Below are positions 7,986 through 60,653 of a stretch of DNA of 64,000 nt, one piece after another (positions within the stretch are counted from its first letter, which is position 1; each line of letters starts with the position of its first letter). This DNA comes from Minisyncoccota bacterium. GTDB taxonomy: Bacteria > Patescibacteriota > Minisyncoccia > Minisyncoccales > RBG-13-42-11. The stretch lies in contig JADHYE010000003.1 of NCBI GenBank assembly GCA_016782605.1, forward strand, positions 6,852-70,851, in the 5' to 3' direction. The notes under the pieces were generated by a model. That model saw only the letters and a program-made list of their open reading frames with translations, did no database searches and was not told where the DNA came from. The position numbers and the translations under genes were made by a program.

Positions 7986-8205
7986 GCGTTTGTTTAATCA
8001 GTATATTAAAAAAACAAATAGCTGTCAAAATAAAAAATATATTTGCTAATTATTCTTATAATTAGCGGGACATTCGGGTTAAGTACCCGGGGAGACGCTC
8101 CTTATAGAGGCATTGTAGGACTTTTTTAAGGATTTTACCAGCGCGGAATTGAGGCATGCGGGTCACTACTCACTCGCTACTAATTGGGTTGCGCTGGGAA
8201 ACCTT

Positions 8206-16714: not shown

Positions 16715-16764
16715 ATAATTTCCCTTCTATCTTAGATTAATTTATGATATTTGTAAAGATATAT

Positions 16765-17907
16765 ATGCTGATATTAGCCATAGAAACATCCTGCGACGAC
16801 ACTTGCGCAGCTGTTATTAAAATCAAAAAAAACAGAAAGTTTGAAATCCTCTCCAACGTGATTTCTTCCCAGGTAAAACTCCACTCAAAATACGGAGGGG
16901 TTTTCCCTTCTCTGGCGAAAAGGGAACACCAAAAAAACCTGCCCATCGTCGTTAGAAAAGCTTTGAAAGAAGCTAAAAATCCGAAAATCAATCTGATTGC
17001 TGTTACCTCCGGCCCGGGCCTTGAACCATGCTTATGGACAGGCATAAACTTTAGCAAAGAATTGGCTAGAAAAATGAAATTGCCGATAGTCCCGGTAAAT
17101 CATATTGAAGCGCACATCTTAGCTAACGTTATTGATAAAAAACCAGTTTTCCCAGCTGTCTGTTTGATTGTTTCCGGAGGCCACACCCAGATTATCTTAA
17201 TGGAGAAAATCGGAGAATATAAAATACTAGGAGAGACCAGGGATGATGCAGCTGGCGAATGCTTTGACAAAACAGCCAGAATTCTGGGGTTAGGGTATCC
17301 CGGAGGCCCGATTGTAGCAAAAAAAGCAGCTGAATTAAAAAGCAAAAAATTGAAAATTAATTTACCCCGACCGATGATCCATCAAAAAAACTATGACTTC
17401 AGCTTTTCCGGGTTGAAAACCGCTGTTTTATACGAATTTAAAAAACGCCCTCTAAAAATTAGAAAATCCAAACAATACGTTCAAGAAATGTGCGCTGAAA
17501 TCCAGCAGGCAATCATTGACGTTTTAATCCGCAAAACGATAATTGCAGCAAGGGACTACAGGGTAAAATCAATCATTTTAAGCGGAGGGGTAGCAGCTAA
17601 CGAAGAATTAAGAAAGCAGTTCCAATCAGCAACCAGCAACCAATGTTCTAAAATTACTCTTTCTCTGCCGCCAAAAAACTTATGCACCGACAATGCAGCA
17701 ATGGTGGCTGTCGCCGGCTATTTGAACACCGAGCTTCCGAAGGAAGCGAAGGTAAGAAAGAAAATGAAATTTTCTTTCGACTGGCAAAAGGGGCGAAGAG
17801 GACTTCGCCCTCTTCTTCCACCTCGCTTCCACAAATGGAAGCTCGGTAAAAAACACTGGAAAGAAATTAAAGCTAATGCTAACCTAAAAATAGGTGAAAA
17901 ATTATGA
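16765..17907 (+). CDS. tsaD: tRNA N6-adenosine threonylcarbamoyltransferase TsaD (Kae1/Gcp family), with a 40-codon insertion
   Basis: ILAIETSCDDT, HIEAH, SGGHT and CTDNAAM. The alternative upstream ATG 16744 is less likely. Confidence 0.85.
   Translation: MLILAIETSCDDTCAAVIKIKKNRKFEILSNVISSQVKLHSKYGGVFPSLAKREHQKNLPIVVRKALKEAKNPKINLIAVTSGPGLEPCLWTGINFSKELARKMKLPIVPVNHIEAHILANVIDKKPVFPAVCLIVSGGHTQIILMEKIGEYKILGETRDDAAGECFDKTARILGLGYPGGPIVAKKAAELKSKKLKINLPRPMIHQKNYDFSFSGLKTAVLYEFKKRPLKIRKSKQYVQEMCAEIQQAIIDVLIRKTIIAARDYRVKSIILSGGVAANEELRKQFQSATSNQCSKITLSLPPKNLCTDNAAMVAVAGYLNTELPKEAKVRKKMKFSFDWQKGRRGLRPLLPPRFHKWKLGKKHWKEIKANANLKIGEKL
17728..17847. repeat. 120-nt palindromic multi-hairpin element inserted in frame in tsaD
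   Basis: Outer 11-bp inverted repeat ACCGAGCTTCC / GGAAGCTCGGT. Inner hairpins are GAAAGAAAAT/ATTTTCTTTC and GGGCGAAG/CTTCGCCC. Confidence 0.8.
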
Positions 17908-31147: not shown

Positions 31148-31219
31148 GCGGGTGTCGTATAGCGGCTATTATGCAACCTTGCCAAGGTTGAGAAGAGGGT
31201 TCAACTCCCTTCACCCGCT
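31148..31219 (+). tRNA. tRNA-Gly(GCC)
   Basis: Acceptor GCGGGTG/CACCCGC, stem CAACC/GGTTG, loop TTGCCAA. Confidence 0.9.
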
Positions 31220-31233
31220 TGAATCGCAATGAA

Positions 31234-31327
31234 AGCGGAGAAGAGAACAAAGTTCTCTTCGACTGCTCGATAGGCGATGAAATAAATTTCATCTTCACCT
31301 TCGCTCCGCTATGCGGGGCTCGGTCCT
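31234..31327. repeat. intergenic copy of the palindromic multi-hairpin element family
   Basis: AGCGGAG...CTCCGCT encloses GAAGAGAAC-AAA-GTTCTCTTC, GACTG and GATGAAA-TAAA-TTTCATC, then CTTCACCTTCGCT..GCTCGGT. Confidence 0.7.
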
Positions 31328-32492: not shown

Positions 32493-34046
32493 TTATAGCT
32501 GGCCTTTTATTCTTTCTTCAGTATAAAACAGCAAAATATCTCCTTCTTCAATCTTCACTTCTCCTTCAAATAGAATGCCGCACTCTTCTCCCTTCTGAAT
32601 CAAAGCTGCGTCTTTTTTGTTTCTTTGAAGGTTAATCATCTTGCCTTGGCCGATCTTTTCCTCGTTCCTGAAAACTTCAATTGAAGCCCCTTTTCTTGTT
32701 TCGCCCTCTGTCACCCTACAACCGATAATTTGGCGGTTTTTATCTGTCAGGAATTTGGCTAAAACTTTGGCCTTGCCTAAATCAGTTCTTACGTCCTGGG
32801 ATTGGACGATCTTTTCCATTAATTTGCGCACGCCTTCAGCCAGTTCGTAAATAACTTCAAAAAACAGTATTTTGGTCTTTTCTCTTCCCGATATTTTGGC
32901 AGCTGTTTGGTCTGCCTTTACTCTAAATCCAAGAATAGTTGCTCTGGCGCTGGAAGCTAACTTTATGTCTGATTCATTAATGTTGCCCACTTCCGATTTT
33001 AATATCCTTAAGATAACTTTTTCCTGAGGAAGCGATTTTAAGATTCCCTCAACAGCTTCAAGAGAGCCTAAAACATCAGCCTTGATAATCAAATTCAAAA
33101 TTCTCTGTTGGCTAGTTATCTCCAAAACTGCCGGAGTTCTTTTTTCTGGCGAAGAGGATAAATCCTCTTCTTCACCCTTCGCTGCGGCTCGGCTTTTTAA
33201 AGTTTCAATATGCTTTTCAACGCTTTCTAAATCAGGAAAAACCTTAAATTCTTCTCCGACTTTAGGAACCTGGTTAAATCCGAAAATGATTACCGGATCA
33301 GACGGAAAAGCCTCTTTAATCTGCTTTTTCTGGAAATTCTCTATGCTTTTTACTTTAACGGAAGCTGAACTGGTAGCGATTATTTCTCCCGCTTTCAAAC
33401 AGCCGTCAGTTAAAAGCAAAGTGGCTGTCGGTCCCCTGGAATTGTCCAAATACGATTCAATAATTACTCCTTCTGCCGGCTTTTTAAAATCAGCTTTCAG
33501 TTCTTCCATTTCTGAAATTAATAAAATCAGCTCCAAAAGCTCTGGAATGCCTTTTTTTGTTTTAGCTGAAACTTCAATCGAGGGGATTTTACCGCCCATT
33601 GACTCAACCAAAAAGCCTTCTTTTGACAATGTTCCTTTTACTTTTTCTGGATTGGCTTCCGGCTTGTCTATTTTATTTAAAGCGACTATAAAAGGAATCT
33701 TTGTTTCTTTTATATTCAAAAGCACCTCTTTGGTTTGAGGCTTTAATCCTTCGGCCGCATCAATAACTAAAATAGCAATATCAGCTACTTTAGCTCCCCG
33801 AGAGCGCATTTGAGAAAAGGCTTCGTGTCCGGGAGTGTCAAGAAAAGTGATTTTTCCCTTTTTTTCTTCAATCTGATAAGCGCCGATATGCTGGGTGATA
33901 CCGCCTGATTCTTTTGCCGTGATTCTAAAGTCCTTAATTGCTTCAAGCAGGGAACTCTTTCCATGATCAATGTGACCCAGCACCACCACTATTGGGGGCC
34001 TGGTTGTTATTTGGTTTTTGTTCTCCATATTTTTTTGCCATTTCAA
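32493..34046 (-). CDS. infB: translation initiation factor IF-2 (short, lacking long N-terminal region)
   Basis: GHIDHGKSS, DTPGH and NKIDK. The start could be 34046 or 34028. Confidence 0.9.
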   Translation of the reverse strand: MKWQKNMENKNQITTRPPIVVVLGHIDHGKSSLLEAIKDFRITAKESGGITQHIGAYQIEEKKGKITFLDTPGHEAFSQMRSRGAKVADIAILVIDAAEGLKPQTKEVLLNIKETKIPFIVALNKIDKPEANPEKVKGTLSKEGFLVESMGGKIPSIEVSAKTKKGIPELLELILLISEMEELKADFKKPAEGVIIESYLDNSRGPTATLLLTDGCLKAGEIIATSSASVKVKSIENFQKKQIKEAFPSDPVIIFGFNQVPKVGEEFKVFPDLESVEKHIETLKSRAAAKGEEEDLSSSPEKRTPAVLEITSQQRILNLIIKADVLGSLEAVEGILKSLPQEKVILRILKSEVGNINESDIKLASSARATILGFRVKADQTAAKISGREKTKILFFEVIYELAEGVRKLMEKIVQSQDVRTDLGKAKVLAKFLTDKNRQIIGCRVTEGETRKGASIEVFRNEEKIGQGKMINLQRNKKDAALIQKGEECGILFEGEVKIEEGDILLFYTEERIKGQL

Positions 34047-35847: not shown

Positions 35848-36447
35848 CTACCACTCGAATAAGAATTCATGGTATGTATCGCCTTGATGAACACATTTTA
35901 TCTCTCGGCAGGCGACTTTACTCCTTACTATCATTTGTATTAACATTGAAAATATTCCCTCCATAACTCGACATTGAATTGGATGAAAATAGTAGTTTTC
36001 TATTCTTAAAATCCCTTTTTTTTGTTTTTTGTCGAGTTCTACTACTTTTGCATCTCCCGTTGTAAAGAATTTTCTCCACATTTTCGGAATTTCCTTTGCT
36101 GCTTTATCAAGAGAAATTAAATAGTTCATAAGAATTTTAAGAATTATTGAAACTTTAACTCTAAACTCTCCCATGCTTCGAAATTTATTATCATCATATT
36201 TAAAAATTCTTTCAATAACTACAAAGGTAATAGCAAGTAAACTTGAGGGATAATAATCTGTTGCCCTTATTTGTTGATATATTATTGGAAAACCAATCAT
36301 TTTCATTGTTTCCTCTAGTTTTTTTAAACCTTCCATTCCTTCTTCTTTTAAAACAAACTCTCCAGTATTTTTAATACTATTTCCCGTTGTTTCACCTTTA
36401 ATTTGCGCTAACTTCACTAACTCTTCTTTTGAAATTATCTGTTCCAT
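35848..36447 (-). CDS. hypothetical protein, V4R-like C-terminal Cys/His motif (paralog 1)
   Basis: 199 aa; C-terminus reads HPIQCRVMEG...ACREIKCVHQGDTYHEFLFEW. Confidence 0.4.
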   Translation of the reverse strand: MEQIISKEELVKLAQIKGETTGNSIKNTGEFVLKEEGMEGLKKLEETMKMIGFPIIYQQIRATDYYPSSLLAITFVVIERIFKYDDNKFRSMGEFRVKVSIILKILMNYLISLDKAAKEIPKMWRKFFTTGDAKVVELDKKQKKGILRIENYYFHPIQCRVMEGIFSMLIQMIVRSKVACREIKCVHQGDTYHEFLFEW

Positions 36448-36487: not shown

Positions 36488-37090
36488 CTACCATTTTAAT
36501 AAATATTCATGATAATTATCTCCTCGAAAAGAACATTTTGTTTCTTCGCAGGTTGGCTCGGCTTTCAGTACCATTTTAAGAACGCTGGGGAAGTAACCTC
36601 TAAGAGTTTGGTGGCATTGAATCGGGTGACAAGAAAAATTCTCAAGCCTTAAAATCATGTGTTTCTTCTCTTTATCGAGCTCTATTACTTTAAGCTCTCC
36701 TACCGTATAATACTTCTTCCACATGTCTGGAACCTTTTTGGCCATCATATCGATTGAAAAGAAATATTTCAAAAATATTTTAATGATAATGGAGATTTTT
36801 GGCTGAAAACTTCCCAGTTCATAGAATTTTTTTTCATCATAATTTAAAAATTCCTTCATGGCAGCTATGGAAAGAGCCTGAAATCCTAAAGGATAAAAAT
36901 CCATCGTTGTCAATTCTCGATACTTTATCGGATAACCAACTTCTGCCAAAGCCTTCTCTACTTTCTTTAATCCTTCTTCGCCATCTTTTTTTATAATAAA
37001 ATCTGCGTAATTTTTAAGCAGAACTCCCCTTACTTCTCCCTTAAAACTCATGAATTTATCGGCTATTTCTTTTGAAAATATTTGTTCCAT
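36488..37090 (-). CDS. hypothetical protein, V4R-like C-terminal Cys/His motif (paralog 2)
   Basis: 200 aa and collinear with paralog 1; C-terminus reads HPIQCHQTLRG...TCEETKCSFRGDNYHEYLLKW. Confidence 0.4.
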   Translation of the reverse strand: MEQIFSKEIADKFMSFKGEVRGVLLKNYADFIIKKDGEEGLKKVEKALAEVGYPIKYRELTTMDFYPLGFQALSIAAMKEFLNYDEKKFYELGSFQPKISIIIKIFLKYFFSIDMMAKKVPDMWKKYYTVGELKVIELDKEKKHMILRLENFSCHPIQCHQTLRGYFPSVLKMVLKAEPTCEETKCSFRGDNYHEYLLKW

Positions 37091-37144: not shown

Positions 37145-37204
37145 GGCAGGTCGTCTAGGGGACGATGCCTGCCCTGAGTCGCATCGAAGGGTTAGAACCT
37201 GTTT
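37145..37204. repeat. R-repeat copy C (outside the island)
   Basis: GGCAGGTCGTCTAGGGGACGATGCCTGCCCTGAGTCGCATCGAAGGGTTAGAACCTGTTTT. It is preceded by the strong hairpin CCAGAAACCGC/GCGGTTTCTGG (37106-37139). Confidence 0.8.
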
Positions 37205-37212
37205 TGGATAAC

Positions 37213-37950
37213 CTATTTTGTTAAGTATTTTTCTAAGAAATCTTTCCGAGTCATTGTGGCATGTTTTATATCTCTTTTCTCATCCTGAAAATGTTTTTCT
37301 TTTAATTCTTTTTTAACATCTTCAATCTCAAAACCAGCTCCCTCAAATAATTCAGGATTCTTGGCAACTATCCAAGAAGTTGCGGTAATTTCCTCAATAT
37401 TCGGGTCATTATTAACTATTGTAGCAAGTTTTTTCATCGCAACTTCGTATAATTTTAATCTTTCCGATGTAGAAATTGCTCTTGCTGGAAGATGATGAAG
37501 ATGTATCATCGACCCTGTTTTTCCATAAGAAACCACCCTATTTATTTCAATAAAACCGTCTTGTTCGTTAAATTCCTTTACTAATTTTTCTTCGGCTTTC
37601 TCAAGATTATTTGCGTATAATCTGACAACTGGTTTTAGCAAACTTTCTGCCTCCGAAAGAAATTCCTCTTGGCTATAATCTTCTTTTTTATATCGGTTTA
37701 ATTGATTTATTATCTCGTGCAATCTTTCTTCGGGAAAAACTTCTTTGTCCACACTTTCAAAAATTTTTTTGACAGCTTCAATTATTTCTTCAACTCTTTG
37801 GTTGTTATTTTCGTTTTTCTCGTAATTATTTTTTAAGAAACTACCCATATCCTTTTCAATTTTCTCTTGTCTTCTTTCTTTTTCATTAGTCAAATTTTCA
37901 TTTTTTGGTCCTGCACCGTAAATATTGGGTTCACCTTCTGGCGTTTTCAT
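37213..37950 (-). CDS. hypothetical protein
   Basis: 245 aa ORF with an acidic helical N-terminal half; I recognise no motif. Confidence 0.3.
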   Translation of the reverse strand: MKTPEGEPNIYGAGPKNENLTNEKERRQEKIEKDMGSFLKNNYEKNENNNQRVEEIIEAVKKIFESVDKEVFPEERLHEIINQLNRYKKEDYSQEEFLSEAESLLKPVVRLYANNLEKAEEKLVKEFNEQDGFIEINRVVSYGKTGSMIHLHHLPARAISTSERLKLYEVAMKKLATIVNNDPNIEEITATSWIVAKNPELFEGAGFEIEDVKKELKEKHFQDEKRDIKHATMTRKDFLEKYLTK

Positions 37951-38047
37951 AATTTTAAATTAGATTACTTCTAAATTACTTATCTTATTCTACCAAAAAA
38001 CCGCCTGATTGGCGATTAGTTGGTCTCCCCTGGAAAAGGAGTCGAAA

Positions 38048-38121
38048 GGTGAGCGAGGAGATTCGAACTCCCCCTAAGAGTTCCACAGACTCTTGTGCTA
38101 AACCACTACACTACGCCCACC
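38048..38121 (-). tRNA. tRNA-His(GTG) with encoded G-1
   Basis: G-1 pairs with C73; acceptor GTGGGCG/CGCTCAC, loop CTGTGGA. Confidence 0.9.
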
Positions 38122-38144
38122 ATGGTACAGTATTCTTAAATTAG

Positions 38145-38218
38145 TGTCCCCGGCAGGACTCGAACCTACAACCTAGGGGTTAGAAACCACTTGCTCTATC
38201 CGATTGAGCTACGGGGAC
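38145..38218 (-). tRNA. tRNA-Arg(TCT)
   Basis: Acceptor GTCCCCG/CGGGGAC, loop TTTCTAA. Confidence 0.85.
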
Positions 38219-38231
38219 TTGTTATTTTTAT

Positions 38232-38894
38232 TTAATAATTTAACGTTTCTATAAATCCCAATTTCCAACCTTTTATTCTTCTAAATAAATCTTTTCTATG
38301 GATAGTTATCGCACAAGTACCATTATATAATTTATTCTTTCTCACTTTCAGAGAGGTTGGTTTAATTTGAGTCTTGTGGAATTGAGAAAGTGAAATCTCT
38401 GTAACTCTAGACCAATACCTTTGTATGTTTTTCCTGCAGTGAAGTTTATGAACATGAAGACATATTTTAAATTTATTTTCTGGCACTTTACAAAATTCTC
38501 TAAACCACCACATCATGAATTTAACCATAATGGGATCAGAATTAGTAAATTTTACCACCTCTCTTTCGTCCGATTTGTCACCCTCAGCCCAATATAGCAT
38601 CAAACCAGCTAAAAATAAAGGTTTTTTAAAAAATAATTTAAATTCTTTCTCAGCTTCCTTAATAATTCTTTTGGTCCTTTCTATTCTTTTTTTCTGTCTG
38701 ACTTTGGCTCCCTTATAAGCATTTATTCTTCGTAGAGTCACATAAAGCCTCTTTTTTTGTTCGGGCCTGAGCTTAACATCCCTAAGCCATAAACTCAAAG
38801 CGCCTTTTGAGGCTTTTACTTTTTTGCGTATTTCACTATAGCTTTTCCCTAATTTTCTTAAATGAATTGCTTTAATTTTTTCGTTTATTTTCAT
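38232..38894 (-). CDS. HTH + LAGLIDADG-like homing-endonuclease-type protein
   Basis: N-terminal HTH-like KLGKSYSEIRKKVKASKGALSLWL and the single motif LFLAGLMLYWAEGDK. The gene ends 13 nt from tRNA-Arg(TCT). Confidence 0.5.
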   Translation of the reverse strand: MKINEKIKAIHLRKLGKSYSEIRKKVKASKGALSLWLRDVKLRPEQKKRLYVTLRRINAYKGAKVRQKKRIERTKRIIKEAEKEFKLFFKKPLFLAGLMLYWAEGDKSDEREVVKFTNSDPIMVKFMMWWFREFCKVPENKFKICLHVHKLHCRKNIQRYWSRVTEISLSQFHKTQIKPTSLKVRKNKLYNGTCAITIHRKDLFRRIKGWKLGFIETLNY

Positions 38895-39031
38895 AAATTA
38901 AACAAGTTAATATGTATTATTTAATATAACATCCTTGTTCAATTTTGTAAAATAAAAATCTCCTTGACTAGAAGATTCACTAAACTACGAGGGCAAGTTT
39001 TTAACGTATATATTCTACCTGAAATCAGCTT

Positions 39032-54165: not shown

Positions 54166-55413
54166 TTATTTTTTAACCTTTTTGGTCTCTTTCTTTTTTG
54201 GTTTCTTTGTTTCTTTTTTCTCTTTTGGTTCCTCTTCTTTCTTTTCTTCTTTTTTTTCTTCTCCGGCATAGCCCTCTGCTTTAACGTCTATTTTCCAACC
54301 AGTTAGCTTAGCTGCTAATCTTACGTTTTGTCCGTCTTTGCCGATAGCCAAGGACAACTGGTCTTCAGGAACAATAACTATGGCTTTGCTTTTCGGCATT
54401 ATCTTCACTTCCAGGACTTTGGCCGGAGAAAGGGAATTGGCAATGTATTTTTCCGAGTCTGGCGAGTACTCGATAATATCGATCTTTTCTCCTCCCAATT
54501 CATTAATTACCGCCATAACCCTTGTTCCTTTCTGACCAACCATGGAACCTATCGGGTCTATTCCTTCGGTTTCGGAACTGACAGCTATCTTTGAACGAAA
54601 ACCCGCTTCTCTGGCAATTGACTTTATCTGGACCTGGCCTGAAGAAACTTCCGGAGCTTCAAGTTCAAAAAGCTTTGAAATTAATTTAGGATAAGCTCTT
54701 GATAAAAGTATGACAGGACCCCTGGGCGTTTCTTCAACTTTTAAAAGAAAAACTTTAAGGCGCTGTCCGGGCCTGTAGAATTCCCCTGGCACCTGCTCTT
54801 CCCTGGGCAAGATTCCCAAGGTTTTGCCGATATCCATAAAAACATTCCTTCCTTCGATTCTCTGGACAATGCCTGAAACTATTTCTCCTTCTTTTGATTT
54901 GTATTCCGTAAAAATGCTTTCTTTTTCAGCTTCCCTTATCTTTTGCAAGATAACCTGTTTTGCGGTTTGGGCGGCGATCCTGCCGTAATCCTTTTTTTCT
55001 TCCAAATCAGTTTCCAGCTCTTCGCCAACTTTTATTTTAGAATTTATCTTTTTGGCTTCTTCGAACATAATGTGCTTTTCCAAATTAAAGCGGATCTTTT
55101 TATCTTCTGCTTCGGATATTAATCCTTCTTCTTTGCGCCTCGTCGGCGCATCCGCTGAAGAGGCGGACATTTTCTCCAATTCTTCTTCCGAATAAATCAT
55201 TTTCTTGTCTACGACTATCTTTACTTGTTTAAACTGAACGTCGCCTGATTCCGGATCAAGTTTGGCTTTGATTATCTGGCCCTTTTTCCCGTAGTCTTTT
55301 TTATAGGCTGCGGCAATGGCTACCTCAATGGTTTCCAAAACCTTTTCAGGCGAGATGCTTTTTTCTTCGGCGATCTGGGCGATGGCCGACATGAAATTTT
55401 TAATGTCAAACAT
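54166..55413 (-). CDS. nusA: transcription termination/antitermination factor NusA with Lys/Glu-rich tail
   Basis: N-terminal domain, S1 domain and two KH domains ([22 protein letters not shown]). Confidence 0.9.
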
Positions 55414-55557
55414 GGAGTTTTTATGAAATAAAAACGAACATGAAAAAGAGGATTTATCCTCTTTGACTATATGCTTTTAAAAAGTGCCCGCAACTTTTGC
55501 GGACTAATTAAATGATAGCAAAACAAAACAAACCGTCAATAGGGAAAATATCAAATG

Positions 55558-55711: not shown

Positions 55712-57190
55712 TTAAGTAACCCAGTATTTTTTCTTTGTCATTTCGTCTCTCTTGGTCTCTATTTTTTCTCTTTCTGCTTTTGCTTTTGAAGAAAAAGAGA
55801 TAATTTCCTTTTCCGATAATTCACCTAACTTTTTAATCTCTTTTTCCAGAAATTCTTTTTTGTTCTTTTCAGGATCAGCTAAAACGTAACTTAATAAAAT
55901 ATCCAGTATCTGGCCTACTTTCGGCCCTGATTTGATATCCAAAACCTTCATCACGTCTTTTCCGTTGGCCTTCAGCATTTTAGCTGAAATCGGATCCTGG
56001 GAAACCTTGTCAATTATATATTTCAAATGCCTTAATTTGTAAGGTTCAGCCTTGGGAACGCCAGAGCCTATCCTGTCTGCCATTCTCACCTGTAAGAGCT
56101 CTTCCATGTTTTCCGGACCTGCTTCGCGGACCAATCGCCTGACCGAACCTTCGCCGACCTCTTCAGGATTATAGTAGAAAAGATGGTATCTGACCAGCCT
56201 GACTATCTTTTCAATGTCTTTTTTGGGAAATTTCAAACGGTTCAATATTTGATAAGTCATTTTCGCTCCGATTATCTCGTGGCTGTAAAAAGTAGAATCC
56301 TGGCCTTTTCCTCTCTTGGATCTCGGCTTGCCGACATCATGAAACAAAGCAGCCATTCTTACGTGCTTGTTGAAATTCTTTTTGGCTGCATAATCCAAAG
56401 ATTTCAGATAGTGGTCATAGCATTCATATATATGATGCTTGTTCTGGGAAACTTTGTATCCTTCTTCCAGTTCCGGAATAATATACTTTAACAATCCCAA
56501 TCCCCTTAAAAGATCTATGCCCTCAGCTGCCCTTTCTGACATGACAATTTTTATTAATTCGTCTCTGATTCTTTCTTTGGAAATTTCCTGAAGGAGCAAG
56601 GCATTCTTTTTTATGGCTTGAGCTGTTTTTTGCTCAATCTGCCATTTGGCAAAACCGTTTAAAGTGGTGAAAAATCTGACTCCTCTCATCATACGCAAGG
56701 CATCTTCTGAAAAGCGCTTTTGCGGATCGCCGACTGCCCTGATTAATCTTGCTTTTAAGTCTTTTTGCCCGTTAAAAGGATCTTCTATATCATATTCCTT
56801 GCCTTTTAAGGCTAAAGCAATGGCATTGACTGTAAAATCCCTTCTTGCCAAATCTTCTTTTATGGTTTTAGCGAATTTAACTTCGTCAGGATGCCGTTTG
56901 TCGCTGTATTTCGCTTCAGAACGGTAAGTTGTAATTTCAACTTCTTTCAGTTCTTTGGCTTTACTATTGGTCTTAACAGTCACTGTCAGGAATTTGTTCT
57001 CGTAAAAGCTCTTTGAAAACAGTTTTTGTATTTCTTTTGGTTTGGCGTTGGTAGCAATGTCCCAGTCTTCCGGCTTAGCTTTTCTTAAAATATCCCTGAG
57101 GCAACCGCCAACAATATAAGCCTGAAAACCAGCTTTTTTCAGTTTTTCAATAATAGTTTTTACCTCTTTTGGAATCAGCATACCCCGCAT
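55712..57190 (-). CDS. cca: CCA-adding tRNA nucleotidyltransferase with HD domain
   Basis: IVGGCLRD, DWDIAT and HD motif LFHDVGKP. Start chosen at ATG 57190, 5 nt after GGAGG. Confidence 0.85.
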   Translation of the reverse strand: MRGMLIPKEVKTIIEKLKKAGFQAYIVGGCLRDILRKAKPEDWDIATNAKPKEIQKLFSKSFYENKFLTVTVKTNSKAKELKEVEITTYRSEAKYSDKRHPDEVKFAKTIKEDLARRDFTVNAIALALKGKEYDIEDPFNGQKDLKARLIRAVGDPQKRFSEDALRMMRGVRFFTTLNGFAKWQIEQKTAQAIKKNALLLQEISKERIRDELIKIVMSERAAEGIDLLRGLGLLKYIIPELEEGYKVSQNKHHIYECYDHYLKSLDYAAKKNFNKHVRMAALFHDVGKPRSKRGKGQDSTFYSHEIIGAKMTYQILNRLKFPKKDIEKIVRLVRYHLFYYNPEEVGEGSVRRLVREAGPENMEELLQVRMADRIGSGVPKAEPYKLRHLKYIIDKVSQDPISAKMLKANGKDVMKVLDIKSGPKVGQILDILLSYVLADPEKNKKEFLEKEIKKLGELSEKEIISFSSKAKAEREKIETKRDEMTKKKYWVT

Positions 57191-57335
57191 ATCAACCTCC
57201 AGAACCAAACGCTTATTCGCAAGATTGATTCTGAATTAATTAATTATTATATCCCCTTCATACCGCCGCCAGTTGCATTTATTGTGTTGCGTTTGGTTTG
57301 TTTTGCGAATAACTGGAGGTTGTATTACGGGGCAT
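57183..57335 (-). promoter_or_regulatory. structured 5' leader of cca sequestering SD and start codon
   Basis: The 5' arm CCCCGTAATACAACCTCCAG (57332-57313) pairs at 17 of 20 positions with CTGGAGGTTGATATGCGGGG (57202-57183). Two crossing 10-bp inner helices lie between. Confidence 0.55.
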
Positions 57336-58484: not shown

Positions 58485-60653
58485 ATGAAAAAAGAAACTT
58501 TTAAATTAGAAATCGGCGGCAAAGAGTTAAAGGTTGAAATCAGCAACTTGGCTGAACAAGCTTCGGGCAGCGTTTTGGTTCAATACGGAGAAACTACTGT
58601 TTTGGCCACGGCTGTCATGTCTGACTTTGAACGGGAAGGAATTGATTTTTTCCCTTTGACTGTTGAATACGAAGAAAGATATTATGCTGCCGGCAAGATA
58701 TTAGGTTCAAGATATCTACGCAGAGAAAGCCGGCCTTCAGACGAAGCTATTCTAACTGCCAGATTCATCGACAGGGCGATAAGGCCCCGTTTTCCTAAAA
58801 ACCTGAAAAGAGAAATCCAAGTAGTGGTTACCTGCCTTTCCTGGGACGGGGAGAATGATCCTGATATTGTCGGATTGATTGCTGCTTCCATGGCTCTTTC
58901 CATTTCTGACATACCCTGGGCAGGGCCAATAGCCATTCTCAGAGTAGGCAGGGATGAAAAAGACTTTATTATCAACCCGACTTACGGAGAGCGGGAAAAA
59001 GCTGAATTGGATTTGGCCATTGCCGGACTTTCCTCGCCCTTAGCCAAGGATCTGGGCAACGATAAAGACGATGACATTTTAATCAATATGATTGAAATGG
59101 AAAGCAATGAAATAGAAGAGGACACTGTTTTGAAAGCGGTTGATTTTGCCAAGCCTTTCTTAAAAAAGCTTATTGGTTTTCAAAAAGAAATTACTCAAAA
59201 ATCCGGCAAAGAAAAAGTGGTAATCGAGAAAACTCCCAGAGACGAAAACCTGGAAAAAGACATTAGGGATTTCCTGGGAAATAAACTGGAAAAAGCTTTC
59301 TTTCAAAAAGACAAAAAAAGCCAAATGGACGAAGTCAACCAACTGAGGGATGAGCTAATTTTTCATATCCAAAGCAAGAGAGGCGAGGCGATGAGAACCT
59401 CGTTCTCATCTTCTTCTTTACCTTCGCTTTCGCTTCGCGTAAGCTCGGTTTTTGAAGAAGAAATTGAAAAAATGATCCACGAAAGCGTTATTAAATCTGG
59501 CAAAAGGCCTGATTCCAGAAAAATTGACGAGGTAAGGAACATAGAATGCGAAGTAGGATTATTGCCCAGAACCCACGGCTCAGGATTATTTGTCAGGGGC
59601 CAAACCAAAGCGCTTTCCATACTGACTTTGGGTGCTCCGGGAGACGTCAGGCTTCTTGAAGGAATGGAAACTACCGGCAAAAAAAGATTCATGCACCATT
59701 ACAACTTCCCTCCTTATTCTTCTGGCGAAGTAAAGCCGATGAGGGGCCCGGGCAGAAGAGAAATTGGCCACGGCATGCTGGCAGAAAAAGCTTTAATGCC
59801 TTTAGTGCCCGGTTTTGATAAATTTCCGTACACCATCCGTATAGTTACTGAAATCCTTTCTTCCAACGGTTCAACTTCCATGGCTTCTGTTTCAGCGGCC
59901 TCTTTGGCTTTAATGGATGCTGGCGTGCCGATAAGCAGGCCGGCTACTGGTATTGCCTTGGGGCTGATGGCTGATTTGAAAGGAAACTACAAAATATTAA
60001 CCGACATTCAGGGACCAGAAGACCACCACGGAGACATGGACTTTAAAGTCGCTGGAACGGAAAAAGGAATTACTGCCATTCAAATGGACGTTAAAATCCA
60101 GGGGATCGGCAAGGAAATTATTTCAAACGCTTTGATTCAAGCTAAAAAAGCAAGATTGCAGATTTTAAGCGAAATGACGAAAGTAATTTCCAAACCCAAA
60201 GAAAGCCTTTCTCCCCATGCTCCCAGGATATTAATTTTACAGATAAATCCTGTTAAGATAAGGGAGGTGATAGGCCCTGGCGGAAAAATAATAAATGAAA
60301 TAATCGGGGAATGCGGCGTATCAATCGACATTGAAGATTCTGGCAGAATTTTCATTACCGCTGAAAAAGAAAAGGCAGCGGAAAAAGCTGCTTCCTGGAT
60401 AAAAAATATCACCCACGAAGTCAAAGTCGGCGAAATCTTCCAGGGAAAAGTCAAAAGGATTCTGGATTTCGGCGCCTTTGTTGAAATGCTGCCAGGGCAA
60501 GAGGGCTTGGTCCATATCTCTCAGCTGGCCGATTACCACGTAAATAAAGTGGAAGACATCGTCAAAGTGGGAGATATTGTTCCGGTCAAAGTCATTTCAA
60601 TTGACGAACAAGGAAGAATCAATCTTTCTTTAAAAGAAGCTAAAAGTCAATAA
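58485..60653 (+). CDS. pnp: polyribonucleotide nucleotidyltransferase (PNPase), with a short repeat-derived insertion
   Basis: Two RNase PH domains, KH (GPGGKIINEI) and S1 (GKVKRILDFGAFVE); 722 aa. Confidence 0.95.
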   Translation: MKKETFKLEIGGKELKVEISNLAEQASGSVLVQYGETTVLATAVMSDFEREGIDFFPLTVEYEERYYAAGKILGSRYLRRESRPSDEAILTARFIDRAIRPRFPKNLKREIQVVVTCLSWDGENDPDIVGLIAASMALSISDIPWAGPIAILRVGRDEKDFIINPTYGEREKAELDLAIAGLSSPLAKDLGNDKDDDILINMIEMESNEIEEDTVLKAVDFAKPFLKKLIGFQKEITQKSGKEKVVIEKTPRDENLEKDIRDFLGNKLEKAFFQKDKKSQMDEVNQLRDELIFHIQSKRGEAMRTSFSSSSLPSLSLRVSSVFEEEIEKMIHESVIKSGKRPDSRKIDEVRNIECEVGLLPRTHGSGLFVRGQTKALSILTLGAPGDVRLLEGMETTGKKRFMHHYNFPPYSSGEVKPMRGPGRREIGHGMLAEKALMPLVPGFDKFPYTIRIVTEILSSNGSTSMASVSAASLALMDAGVPISRPATGIALGLMADLKGNYKILTDIQGPEDHHGDMDFKVAGTEKGITAIQMDVKIQGIGKEIISNALIQAKKARLQILSEMTKVISKPKESLSPHAPRILILQINPVKIREVIGPGGKIINEIIGECGVSIDIEDSGRIFITAEKEKAAEKAASWIKNITHEVKVGEIFQGKVKRILDFGAFVEMLPGQEGLVHISQLADYHVNKVEDIVKVGDIVPVKVISIDEQGRINLSLKEAKSQ
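59378..59449. repeat. partial copy of the palindromic hairpin element, in frame inside pnp
   Basis: GATGAGAAC-CTC-GTTCTCATC followed by TTCTTCTTTACCTTCGCTTTCGCTTCGCGTAAGCTCGGT; translated as ...RGEAMRTSFSSSSLPSLSLRVSSV... Confidence 0.65.

Follow-up and report, generated by a model that had tools for sequence, protein, structure and literature searches.

Double-hairpin repeat units in the tsaD gene of a Minisyncoccota bacterium: probable members of a miniature mobile repeat family of Patescibacteria

We analyzed a stretch of 64,000 nucleotides, referred to as the window, from a Minisyncoccota bacterium (GTDB lineage Bacteria; Patescibacteriota; Minisyncoccia; Minisyncoccales; RBG-13-42-11; GenBank assembly GCA_016782605.1, contig JADHYE010000003.1, positions 6,852 to 70,851 of the forward strand). 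The window codes for TsaD, the threonylcarbamoyltransferase subunit for tRNA t6A37 (16765..17907, plus strand), and this gene carries a palindromic segment near its 3' end (17728-17847). The palindrome is probably composed of two units, both from one family of mobile repeats that are miniature and non-autonomous, and for which we use the name double-hairpin units. We assign a rough probability of 0.62 to this reading. The two units were inserted independently into tsaD, in opposite orientation, 9 nt apart, and in one permissive loop.

The Palindromic Segment of tsaD

The tsaD gene is contained in an open reading frame (ORF) of 387 codons (16744-17907 according to the ORF list), with ATG at 16765 as the likely start codon. 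The gene assignment is based on a match to a TsaD sequence from the PDB (E = 1.8e-77) and on 8000 homologs with PF00814. In the homolog alignment, all family-invariant TsaD residues, including H113, H117 and D309, are kept in the window protein; the gene is intact despite the insert.

A profile of the unit was built from 85 copies, all collected outside the tsaD locus of the window. It matches the two halves of the palindrome separately, each at full length and in opposite orientations. The left unit (17728..17781, 54 nt, minus strand) is matched with E = 9.6e-14 (profile positions 2-54). Its top strand, which is the minus strand of the window, reads GTCGAAAGAAAAT-TTC-ATTTTCTTTC TT ACCTTCGCTTCC-TTC-GGAAGCTCGGT, and the encoded peptide in the tsaD frame is TELPKEAKVRKKMKFSFD. 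The right unit (17791..17847, 57 nt, plus strand; E = 3.5e-14) reads GGGCGAAG-AGGA-CTTCGCCC TCTTCTTCC ACCTCGCTTCC-ACAAAT-GGAAGCTCGGT and codes for GRRGLRPLLPPRFHKWKLG. The two units belong to different subfamilies, as they differ in the stems of hairpin A and in the loop of hairpin B. They are separated by the native tsaD nonamer TGGCAAAAG (17782..17790, plus strand; codons for W-Q-K), which is identical in the homologous fragment L003 (AATTGGCAAAAGAAAAAG).

The complete segment is highly structured. The RNA fold of 17728-17847 has -61.9 kcal/mol, compared to -32.1 +/- 3.7 in shuffled sequences (z = -8.0; 0 of 200 shuffles as good), and the DNA folds have z = -8.6 and -9.6, one for each strand. 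When folded as DNA, the left unit forms two hairpins (z of about -4.5 to -4.8), and the right unit has z = -6.6. A previous sequence-only reading of this DNA had pointed out an 11-bp inverted repeat, ACCGAGCTTCC (17728-17738) / GGAAGCTCGGT (17837-17847), and two inner hairpins with the stems GAAAGAAAAT/ATTTTCTTTC (17756-17778) and GGGCGAAG/CTTCGCCC (17791-17810). The inverted repeat is indeed 100% complementary, and both hairpins are perfect. In the light of the profile matches, the outer inverted repeat is simply formed by the 3' termini (GGAAGCTCGGT), conserved in the family, of two divergently oriented units. The same reading had assumed a single 120-nt element, inserted in frame as 40 codons. 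Span and frame are correct, but the inserted length is 111 nt (37 codons), given that the central 9 nt are native. GACTG, which had been taken as a building block, is a junction artefact: TTCGAC is the 5' end of the left unit on the opposite strand, while TG stems from the native TGG codon. The view of GACTG, CACCTTCGCT and GCTCGGT as three blocks of one element was thus abandoned.

We consider it very improbable that the segment is one composite element of 120 nt with 11-bp terminal inverted repeats, which would have arrived in a single insertion event in the manner of a miniature transposable element with inverted repeats (MITE) or a REPIN. The perfect complementarity of the outer arms and the folding of the whole segment as one long stem would fit such an element, as would a second head-to-head pair in the window, with a similar spacer of 8 nt, which follows a tRNA-Gly gene. 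REPINs are inverted doublets of repetitive extragenic palindromic (REP) sequences. However, the central 9 nt correspond to orthologous tsaD, and removal of 54 + 57 nt restores the frame and sequence of the ortholog exactly; by simple arithmetic, the probability of a 9/9 chance match at the right position is about 4e-6. In addition, only 3 of 27 adjacent unit pairs are arranged head to head, while 22 are in tandem (six of these with a gap of 0-2 nt) and 2 tail to tail, and most units are solitary. The assignment of the halves to different subfamilies and the lack of a target duplication also argue against a composite element and are consistent with two separately inserted units.

The length of each of the two units is a multiple of 3, and each is devoid of stop codons in the frame used, so that tsaD stays open. 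The net gain is 111 nt or 37 codons (18 + 19 residues), which equals the length difference to the closest homolog, P0002, after allowing for a 2-residue difference elsewhere. In the AlphaFold model of the window protein (mean predicted local distance difference test value, pLDDT, of 86.4), the core superposes on YgjD/TsaD structures with a TMt (TM-score normalised to the target) of up to 0.87. A pLDDT below 50 is found only for residues 327-354, which correspond to the insert, and for the last residues. The insert follows the last core helix (311-323) and is located about 20 residues ahead of the native C-terminus. The segment is predicted to be disordered, while the core is confident and TsaD-like. 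The units would be translated into a surface insert of 37 residues that is rich in Lys and Arg, probably disordered, and tolerated rather than needed. There was no Rfam match to an intron for the tsaD insert, and all genic copies of the unit keep the frame open. Intein-like blocks were not seen by eye in the low-complexity insert of 18 + 19 residues; no intein-specific search was run.

Empty Sites in Relatives

P0002, the closest TsaD (94% identical outside the insert), does not contain the insert, and neither do the other close homologs, as had been stated in the sequence-only reading. P0002 reads AGYLNQQKKKHWKEIKANANL, while the window protein reads AGYLN[TELPKEAKVRKKMKFSFDWQKGRRGLRPLLPPRFHKWKLG]KKHWKEIKANANL. 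At the insertion point, FNWQKKKNWKE is found in P0003, P0004 and P0007. At the DNA level, the empty sites are TTTGA-ATCAACAAAAG-AAAAAACACTGG (L001) and TTTCA-ATTGGCAAAAG-AAAAAGAACTGG (L003), and the window has TTTGAAC[54 nt]TGGCAAAAG[57 nt]AAAAAACACTGG, with the central nonamer representing the L003 sequence. In silico excision of 17728-17781 and 17791-17847 results in TTGAAC-TGGCAAAAG-AAAAAACAC (AAC TGG CAA AAG AAA AAA CAC; N W Q K K K H), which is the state in the relatives P0003, P0004 and P0007. The boundaries of the right unit are unambiguous because of the empty site CAAAAG^AAAAAAC (^ marks the junction), and those of the left unit are ambiguous by 2 nt.

There is a negligible probability that the segment is an ordinary protein loop of this lineage, or an artefact of the assembly, with incidental palindromy. 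Several lineage-specific insertions are visible in the alignment of TsaD homologs, which would speak for such a loop. However, the same nucleotides occur at about 100 other places, where they are read in different frames, the profile E-values are about 1e-14, and the closest ortholog is devoid of the insert. An independent assembly, ENA contig L002, is 99.79% identical over 5221 nt (11 single-nucleotide mismatches, no gaps) and carries the identical insert, which excludes an artefact of the assembly as well as a transient allele.

Four further loci of the window contain double-hairpin units. Two of these, at about 31234-31327 and 59378-59449, had been noticed before from recurring sequence blocks and turned out to be real family members according to the profile; the other two were additionally found.

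(i) A unit with a shortened hairpin B (33148..33192, plus strand; E = 8.8e-6) is located inside infB (32493-34046, minus strand). It is in frame and is read in IF-2 as ...SRAAAKGEEEDLSSSP..., with boundaries that are accurate to +/- 1-2 nt owing to a T run. It represents a clean 45-nt insertion when compared to the 94%-identical fragment L104, and IF-2 homologs at 82-93% identity do not contain it. (ii) The unit inside pnp (58485-60653) is also in frame (59386..59449, plus strand; E = 4.7e-9) and codes for ...AMRTSFSSSSLPSLSLRVSS... (shorter excerpt ...SSSSLPSLSLRVSS...). The DNA comparison with fragment L105 shows that it replaced about 33 nt of native sequence, the net increase being 11 codons; the corresponding sequence is KYPDMGKESYVKTF in PNPase homologs that are 94-95% identical. 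(iii) An intergenic composite (31220..31324, no strand assigned; E = 3.8e-5 and 1.8e-5) is located directly 3' of the gene for tRNA-Gly (31148-31219). Two units, of which the minus-strand one (31237-31264) is partial and the plus-strand one (31272-31324) is full, are arranged head to head in it, with an 8-nt spacer. At this position, L104 has only 11 nt (CCACGTTATAC). (iv) A degenerate unit with an AT-rich hairpin B (55414..55474, minus strand; weak profile match, E = 0.02) is intergenic, downstream of nusA, and represents an insertion of about 60 nt relative to L105. Additional GCTCGGT sites in the window (1294, 11453, 50005 and 57845) are not family members, and a first-pass nhmmer match (54425-54504) is without support from the family profile.

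L104 and L105 are from the relative GCA_964481125.1, which has about 94% nucleotide identity and is syntenic with the window at about 31-44 kb and 48-64 kb. All unit sites covered by these fragments (infB, pnp, the composite after tRNA-Gly, and 55414-55474) are empty, and in a profile search, these 35 kb of syntenic sequence as well as L003 and L001 were free of units. The units at tsaD, infB, pnp, the tRNA-Gly spacer and 55414 are thus all missing from relatives that are 90-94% identical. Judged by this comparison, the window has gained about seven units in its 64 kb since the split from the relative with about 94% identity, and the family was recently active in this lineage. Target duplications were not found in the four comparisons with an empty site (left and right tsaD junctions, infB and pnp).

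The Repeat Family

The unit consists of hairpin A, TTCACCTTC, hairpin B and TCGGT. In its canonical form of 54 or 57 nt, it reads (A/G)GGCGAAGAGGAC-TTC-GTCCTCTTC TTC ACCTTC GCTTCC-(TTC or ATAAAT)-GGAAGC TCGGT, and the consensus from the copies is AGGCGAAGAGGAC-TTC-GTCCTCTTC TTC ACCTTC GCTTCC-(TTC or ATAAAT)-GGAAGC TCGGT. When one genome per prokaryotic species was scanned with the core pattern ACCT(N)CGYTYCC-N2-8-GGRARCTCGGT, 96 stretches were obtained. About 85 of these are in metagenome-assembled genomes (MAGs) of Patescibacteria, and the about 12 matches in high-GC organisms are close to chance expectation. At least 27 matches are in one Candidatus Nealsonbacteria MAG (JAPLXL01) and at least 10 in a closed genome of 639,534 bp (CP179888.1). 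Further matches come from Paceibacter normanii and from records with the labels Jorgensenbacteria, Berkelbacteria, Parcubacteria and "uncultured Saccharibacteria". The profile search in 681 kb of Patescibacteria fragments resulted in 186 copies (E < 1e-3), 100 of which are full length. The family occurs with tens of copies per genome in Nealsonbacteria-type Patescibacteria.

Covariation was analyzed for 95 distinct copies. Both stems are paired in 97.2% of the cells, and there are 149 compensatory (double-sided) changes. Shuffles gave 36 +/- 11 such changes (none of 500 reached the observed number), and controls with slid partners gave about 20. Compensatory changes thus maintain both stems, and the structure is under selection. 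Nearly all stem mismatches are single transitions. The G-U asymmetry was considered as a means to discriminate between RNA and DNA and was dismissed, as there is no clear strand asymmetry (18 G.T versus 30 A.C). Extra-stable cUUCGg tetraloops, considered as a sign of RNA structure, were also rejected, because the actual loops are TTC triloops on stems of 6-9 bp.

Only tRNAs and noise were retrieved from Rfam (complete window at the gathering threshold, element at E <= 10). No match to the unit was obtained by blastn against plasmid and phage collections or by a pattern scan of IMG/VR.

A longer subfamily was observed in the LacPavin Nealsonbacteria MAG, in which two other hairpins (TTCGTCCGTCGAGTCAAAGACGAGACGAAAGAAGAAAAACTTTTCTTCGCACTCTTCTTC) take the place of hairpin A and precede the common ACCTTCGCTTCC...GCTCGGT end (L024:4833-4877, L068:3998-4049, L084:6801-6826 and L085:520-564). 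Its architecture is modular, in the manner of BOX elements. Two other hairpins are found in frame in another Patescibacteria tsaD (that of P0040), the first being GC-rich and nearly perfect over about 20 bp (L005:3233-3274, ACGAGACCCGGCCTC...GAGGCCGGGTCTCGT, z = -7.9) and the second being small (L005:3902-3937). Coding sequence in Patescibacteria may thus have been colonised by more than one hairpin family. The linker of the unit (e.g., 17815-17825), TTCACCT(T)C / CCACCTCG, is conserved and single-stranded and, by eye, resembles the anti-Shine-Dalgarno 3' end of 16S rRNA (TCACCTCC); its complement, GAAGGTGA / GAGGTGG, is Shine-Dalgarno-like, which may merely reflect purine/pyrimidine-rich composition.

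Units Inside Genes

A length that is a multiple of 3 is found for 73 of the 100 full-length units, with 54 and 57 nt being dominant. This applies to units in genes (22 of 27) and to those outside of genes (27 of 39). The 54-nt consensus is open in five of the six frames (RRRGLRPLLHLRFLRKLG, GEEDFVLFFTFASFGSS, AKRTSSSSSPSLPSEAR, TELPKEAKVKKRTKSSSP and RASEGSEGEEEDEVLFA). About 27% of the units (50 of 186) are located in ORFs that extend by at least 40 codons on both sides; 32 of these copies are antisense and 18 are sense with respect to the top strand of the unit. About half or more of the copies are intergenic. Host genes that are confirmed by Pfam code for enolase, MetRS, ThrRS, PheRS-beta (two units), LigA, AlaRS and UvrA (three tandem units). 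ValRS is based on the Pfam labels of precomputed gene calls, while RecG (L058) and IleRS (L024) are by-eye identifications from translated ORFs only.

The same blocks are also present in further tsaD genes, where their position and reading frame differ; the sequence is NFALFSTFASSGSSV in L006, and L004 has an insert of 96 nt. There are also independent insertions in other lineages at the same sites of IF-2, PNPase and TsaD, which differ in frame, orientation and number of units (e.g., RAAAKGEEEDLSSS and then ELPKEAKVKKRMESSSP in P0253, and a tandem of two units in P0145). When the 120 best homologs were considered for each protein, unit-derived peptides could be detected in 22 PNPases, 9 IF-2s and 4 TsaDs. 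Because identical DNA is read in differing frames and orientations across genes, the unit is an element at the nucleotide level and not a protein domain. Selection would keep only those insertions that are in frame, free of stop codons and located in permissive loops, which would explain why insertions cluster at the same TsaD, IF-2 and PNPase sites across lineages.

Target Site and Arrangement of the Units

At position +6 downstream of the GCTCGGT end, 84 of 85 copies have an A; +5 is occupied by G or A, 59 of 85 copies have a T at +4, and positions +1 to +3 are rich in A/T. When viewed on the bottom strand, this corresponds to T at -6 (84 of 85) and Y at -5, with about 4 weakly conserved bases between the target and the junction. 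The motif already exists in the empty sites, namely in pnp (...ACAT^TTTTTGAAG), in the tRNA-Gly spacer (...ATAC^CCTTGAC) and in tsaD (^AAAAAAC and ^GTTCAAA), and is therefore a property of the target rather than of the element. A 7-bp target-site duplication (TTTTGAA-like; L026, L086, L092, L096 and L102) was considered and discarded: the flanks are themselves tandem heptamers, no duplication occurs in the four empty-site comparisons, and the downstream motif is present in the empty sites. Weak similarity between the flanks within a copy results from the target motif together with heptamer-rich flanks. As a separate observation, units are often embedded in tandem heptamers such as (TTTTGAT)n, (TTTTGGN)n and (ATTTCTA)n (L086, L092, L096, L102, L087 and L069). 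These heptamers match the insertion target motif, and some of them are located inside long ORFs on the opposite strand.

Nested copies are found in the ATA^AAT loop of hairpin B (e.g., in L006, L024, L050, L088, L089 and L099). The occurrence of tandem and nested forms is explained by the unit itself, as its 5' end (AGGCGA) and the loop of hairpin B (AATGGA) fit the target rule. N runs or contig ends were observed directly beside units at L039:2794-2846, L073:318-399 and L004:~8105-8158.

Among the 100 full-length units, there are 21 in which exactly 2 nt separate the end of the unit from a following ATG, with which an ORF of at least 60 codons begins (e.g., L031:135-185, L032:743-796, L036:6198-6251 and L047:1768-1823). 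Such a unit separates any native ribosome-binding site from the start codon. One could argue that the units are kept as useful RNA or DNA modules (hairpins in the 5'-UTR or at the ribosome-binding site, terminators, protein-binding sites), with genic copies being by-products. Apart from the start-adjacent copies, this would be compatible with a T run after hairpin B in some copies and with the conservation of the sequence and of both stems across genomes with TsaD proteins that are only 60-70% identical. We nevertheless consider this quite improbable. Inside genes, units occur in both orientations and in five reading frames, and their presence or absence differs between 94%-identical genomes at every checked site. 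There is no Rfam match, and the position near start codons is explained by the target motif, which is already in the empty sites; WWATGA, which is target-like, is a common start codon context.

How the Units May Move

For mobile double-hairpin units, we tentatively propose a route via single-stranded DNA. The units would move as DNA hairpins that are cut and joined by an enzyme of the HUH/Y1 type, in the manner of IS200/IS605 or REP-RAYT; this is our best guess at the mechanism, although it is less likely than not. On the bottom strand, the inserted element would be represented as T-Y-N4^[ACCGAGCTTCC-GAA-GGAAGC ... GAGGAC-GAA-GTCCTC-TTCGCCT]^. Insertion would occur 3' of T-Y-N-N-N-N, and the right end of the element itself (TCGCCT) would fit the same pattern, so that both proposed cleavage points would fit TC(R)NNN. 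Such a route would account for the lack of terminal repeats and of a target duplication, for gap-free tandem arrays and for nested insertions in the loop of hairpin B. G-N-A triloops closed by C-G are unusually stable in DNA.

Alternatively, the units may spread via an RNA intermediate (target-primed reverse transcription) or by a host nicking or recombination activity that is yet unknown. Several observations would be consistent with this: a transposase was not found, target duplications are lacking, there is no strand bias with respect to GC skew, conservation is highest at the 3' end (GCTCGGT), and 5'-truncated copies exist (such as the tsaD copy of L006 and the copies in L051 and L054). 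For the double-hairpin elements of Allomyces mitochondria, an RNA route has been proposed because of the absence of flanking duplications, as stated in PMC2800124, citing Paquin et al. 2000. Against such a route, units whose 3' end is divergent or missing outnumber those truncated at the 5' end, with about 55 matches that end before profile position 48, compared to 14 that start at position 8 or later. A reverse transcriptase motif was not detected in the 681-kb scan, and there is no excess of G-U on the strand that would be the RNA (18 versus 30, as given above). Finally, the loops on the bottom strand (GAA, GCA, GTA and GGA) are of the DNA-stable G-N-A type. Considering all this, spread via RNA or a host activity is unlikely.

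A number of observations weigh against our interpretation of the units as mobile repeats of this kind. A crude motif scan of the 681 kb of fragments did not reveal any ORF for an IS200-type TnpA, HUH, RAYT, reverse transcriptase or DDE protein. A Pfam scan of 10 window ORFs that had no other assignment did not reveal a transposase either (the other ORFs were judged by synteny with the gene calls of relatives). In a search of the fragments for an autonomous parent, no pair of unit ends flanking a gene was found, apart from candidates that flank IleRS/RecO-like genes or lie within one ORF, which were rejected. The orientation of the units is not biased with respect to local GC skew (45 of 88), which is a proxy for the direction of replication, and this weighs against the HUH route because a bias is expected for elements of the IS200/IS605 type. 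The conserved target bases are 4-6 nt away from the junction. In IS608 and ISDra2, they are located directly at the junction. Two of the three head-to-head pairs of the whole data set are in the window, with spacers of 8-10 nt, which is only loosely explained by chance and selection. The statistics on open frames and on lengths that are a multiple of 3 rest on a few dominant subfamilies, so that there are fewer independent observations than copies. Translation of the tsaD insert is deduced from the open frame alone.

Other Variable Regions of the Window

A further insertion, of 149 nt, is located at 57183-57331, between the gene for a protein of the CCA-adding/poly(A) polymerase family (ORF 55712-57208) and a tRNA-Arg. 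The relative with 94% identity does not contain it. Its ends are inverted repeats of about 20 bp (CCCCGCATATCAACCTCCAG ... CTGGAGGTTGTATTACGGGG), and it is flanked by the direct repeat (G)CATA. By these features, it is a classical MITE, from a family that differs from the double-hairpin units.

The region 37167-38982 differs strongly in length from L104 and is thus variable. It includes an ORF for 220 aa (38232-38894, minus strand) that adjoins the genes for tRNA-Arg and tRNA-His. The ORF has no Pfam match and lies in a region that is missing from L104. By eye, an N-terminal segment resembling a helix-turn-helix and a LAGLIDADG-like motif (LAGLMLYWAEGDK) are discernible. This may be a free-standing mobile gene of the homing endonuclease type. 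In the vicinity, two tandem paralogous genes (36488-37090 and 35848-36447, minus strand) code for proteins of about 200 aa, and their counterparts in L104 have a weak V4R match.

Significance

Going further, the units might be coding-adapted selfish DNA that is particular to the ultra-small, gene-dense genomes of the candidate phyla radiation (CPR). They would be moved by an enzyme of an unrecognised type or by a host enzyme and would continually remodel surface loops of essential proteins (tRNA synthetases, IF-2, PNPase, TsaD, LigA and UvrA) as well as start-codon-adjacent regions. This is speculative, and we regard it as a doubtful extension; if true, the units would represent a major overlooked source of variation in protein length across Patescibacteria. 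Selfish repeats in essential genes were previously known mainly from Rickettsia and from mitochondria. As Patescibacteria contain an abundant family with recent activity, the phenomenon may be a recurrent one in genomes that are reduced and gene-dense. In the searchable full-text literature, which lacks some journals, we found no earlier description of such elements for Patescibacteria or the CPR, in line with the sequence-only reading, and a prior mention is possible.

There are several practical implications. Odd low-complexity inserts in CPR proteins (TELPKEAKVKKR..., GEEDKSSS..., RAAAKGEEED...) should be interpreted as being repeat-derived rather than as lineage-specific functional loops. 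The units may break metagenome assemblies or cause scaffold gaps. They are sensitive strain markers, since their presence or absence differs between genomes that are 94% identical. The chemistry of transposition suggested by the duplication-free junctions and the one-sided target can be directly tested as soon as the enzyme has been identified. Finally, the units are natural experiments on insertion tolerance, as they show where TsaD, IF-2, PNPase and tRNA synthetases have loops that accept 18-40 additional residues.

Comparison with Known Systems

The parallel to Rickettsia palindromic elements (RPE), which was drawn already in the sequence-only reading, is well founded: tsaD contains a hairpin repeat that is in frame, is missing in orthologs and recurs in the genome. 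Both the units and the RPE are short palindromic or hairpin repeats that reach high copy numbers in small genomes, and a substantial fraction of the copies is in frame in unrelated housekeeping genes. In both cases, a peptide segment is added, the mobilising enzyme is unknown, and the bacteria have reduced genomes and depend on a host. They differ in that RPE have about 100-150 bp and occur in Alphaproteobacteria, while the units have 54 or 57 nt, form two short hairpins and occur in Patescibacteria; the phyla are unrelated, and homology is not expected. Each RPE is described as encoding a conserved peptide, according to the summary of Ogata et al. 2000 in PMC10969869. In contrast, one and the same unit is read in five frames and in both orientations, and for the units, a target motif and junctions without target-site duplication are documented.

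Very short elements with two hairpins are also known from mitochondria, namely the double-hairpin elements of Allomyces, the GC clusters of yeast and the repetitive hairpin elements of sponges. These are described in PMC2800124 (with Paquin et al. 2000) as mobile between close relatives, without flanking duplications, and located in intergenic regions, in rRNA genes and occasionally in frame. While those elements are organellar, the units reside in a free bacterial genome, their sequences are unrelated, and their share in protein-coding genes is much higher (about 27%). The units belong neither to the RPE nor to the mitochondrial double-hairpin family.

REP, BIME and REPIN sequences (with RAYT, a Y1 HUH transposase) share with the units the short hairpins, tens to hundreds of copies, compensatory changes in stems and the lack of terminal inverted repeats for the individual unit. 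As in tsaD, inverted REP doublets can form long hairpins. REP sequences are, however, extragenic, have a conserved 5' GTAG and typically replicate as inverted doublets. The units are devoid of GTAG, 27% of them are intragenic, doublets are rare, and a RAYT was not found in the scan. Elements of the IS200/IS605 group and the transposase-less PATEs resemble the units by subterminal hairpins at both ends, by lacking terminal inverted repeats and a target duplication, and by a one-sided target. Unlike for these, no TnpA was found in the sampled DNA, the target of the units is 4-6 nt off the junction, there is no skew bias, and the units are far smaller than known PATEs.

Bacterial MITEs (Correia, ERIC, BOX, RUP and Nezha) are likewise small, non-autonomous, structured and present in multiple copies, with occasional fusion to ORFs. 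They are characterized by terminal inverted repeats and target-site duplications, whereas single units have neither; the ends of the unit, AGGCGAAG... and ...GGAAGCTCGGT, are not complementary, and there are thus no terminal inverted repeats. As selfish DNA of a known kind, the units constitute a new family from a new lineage, and their architecture is distinctive.

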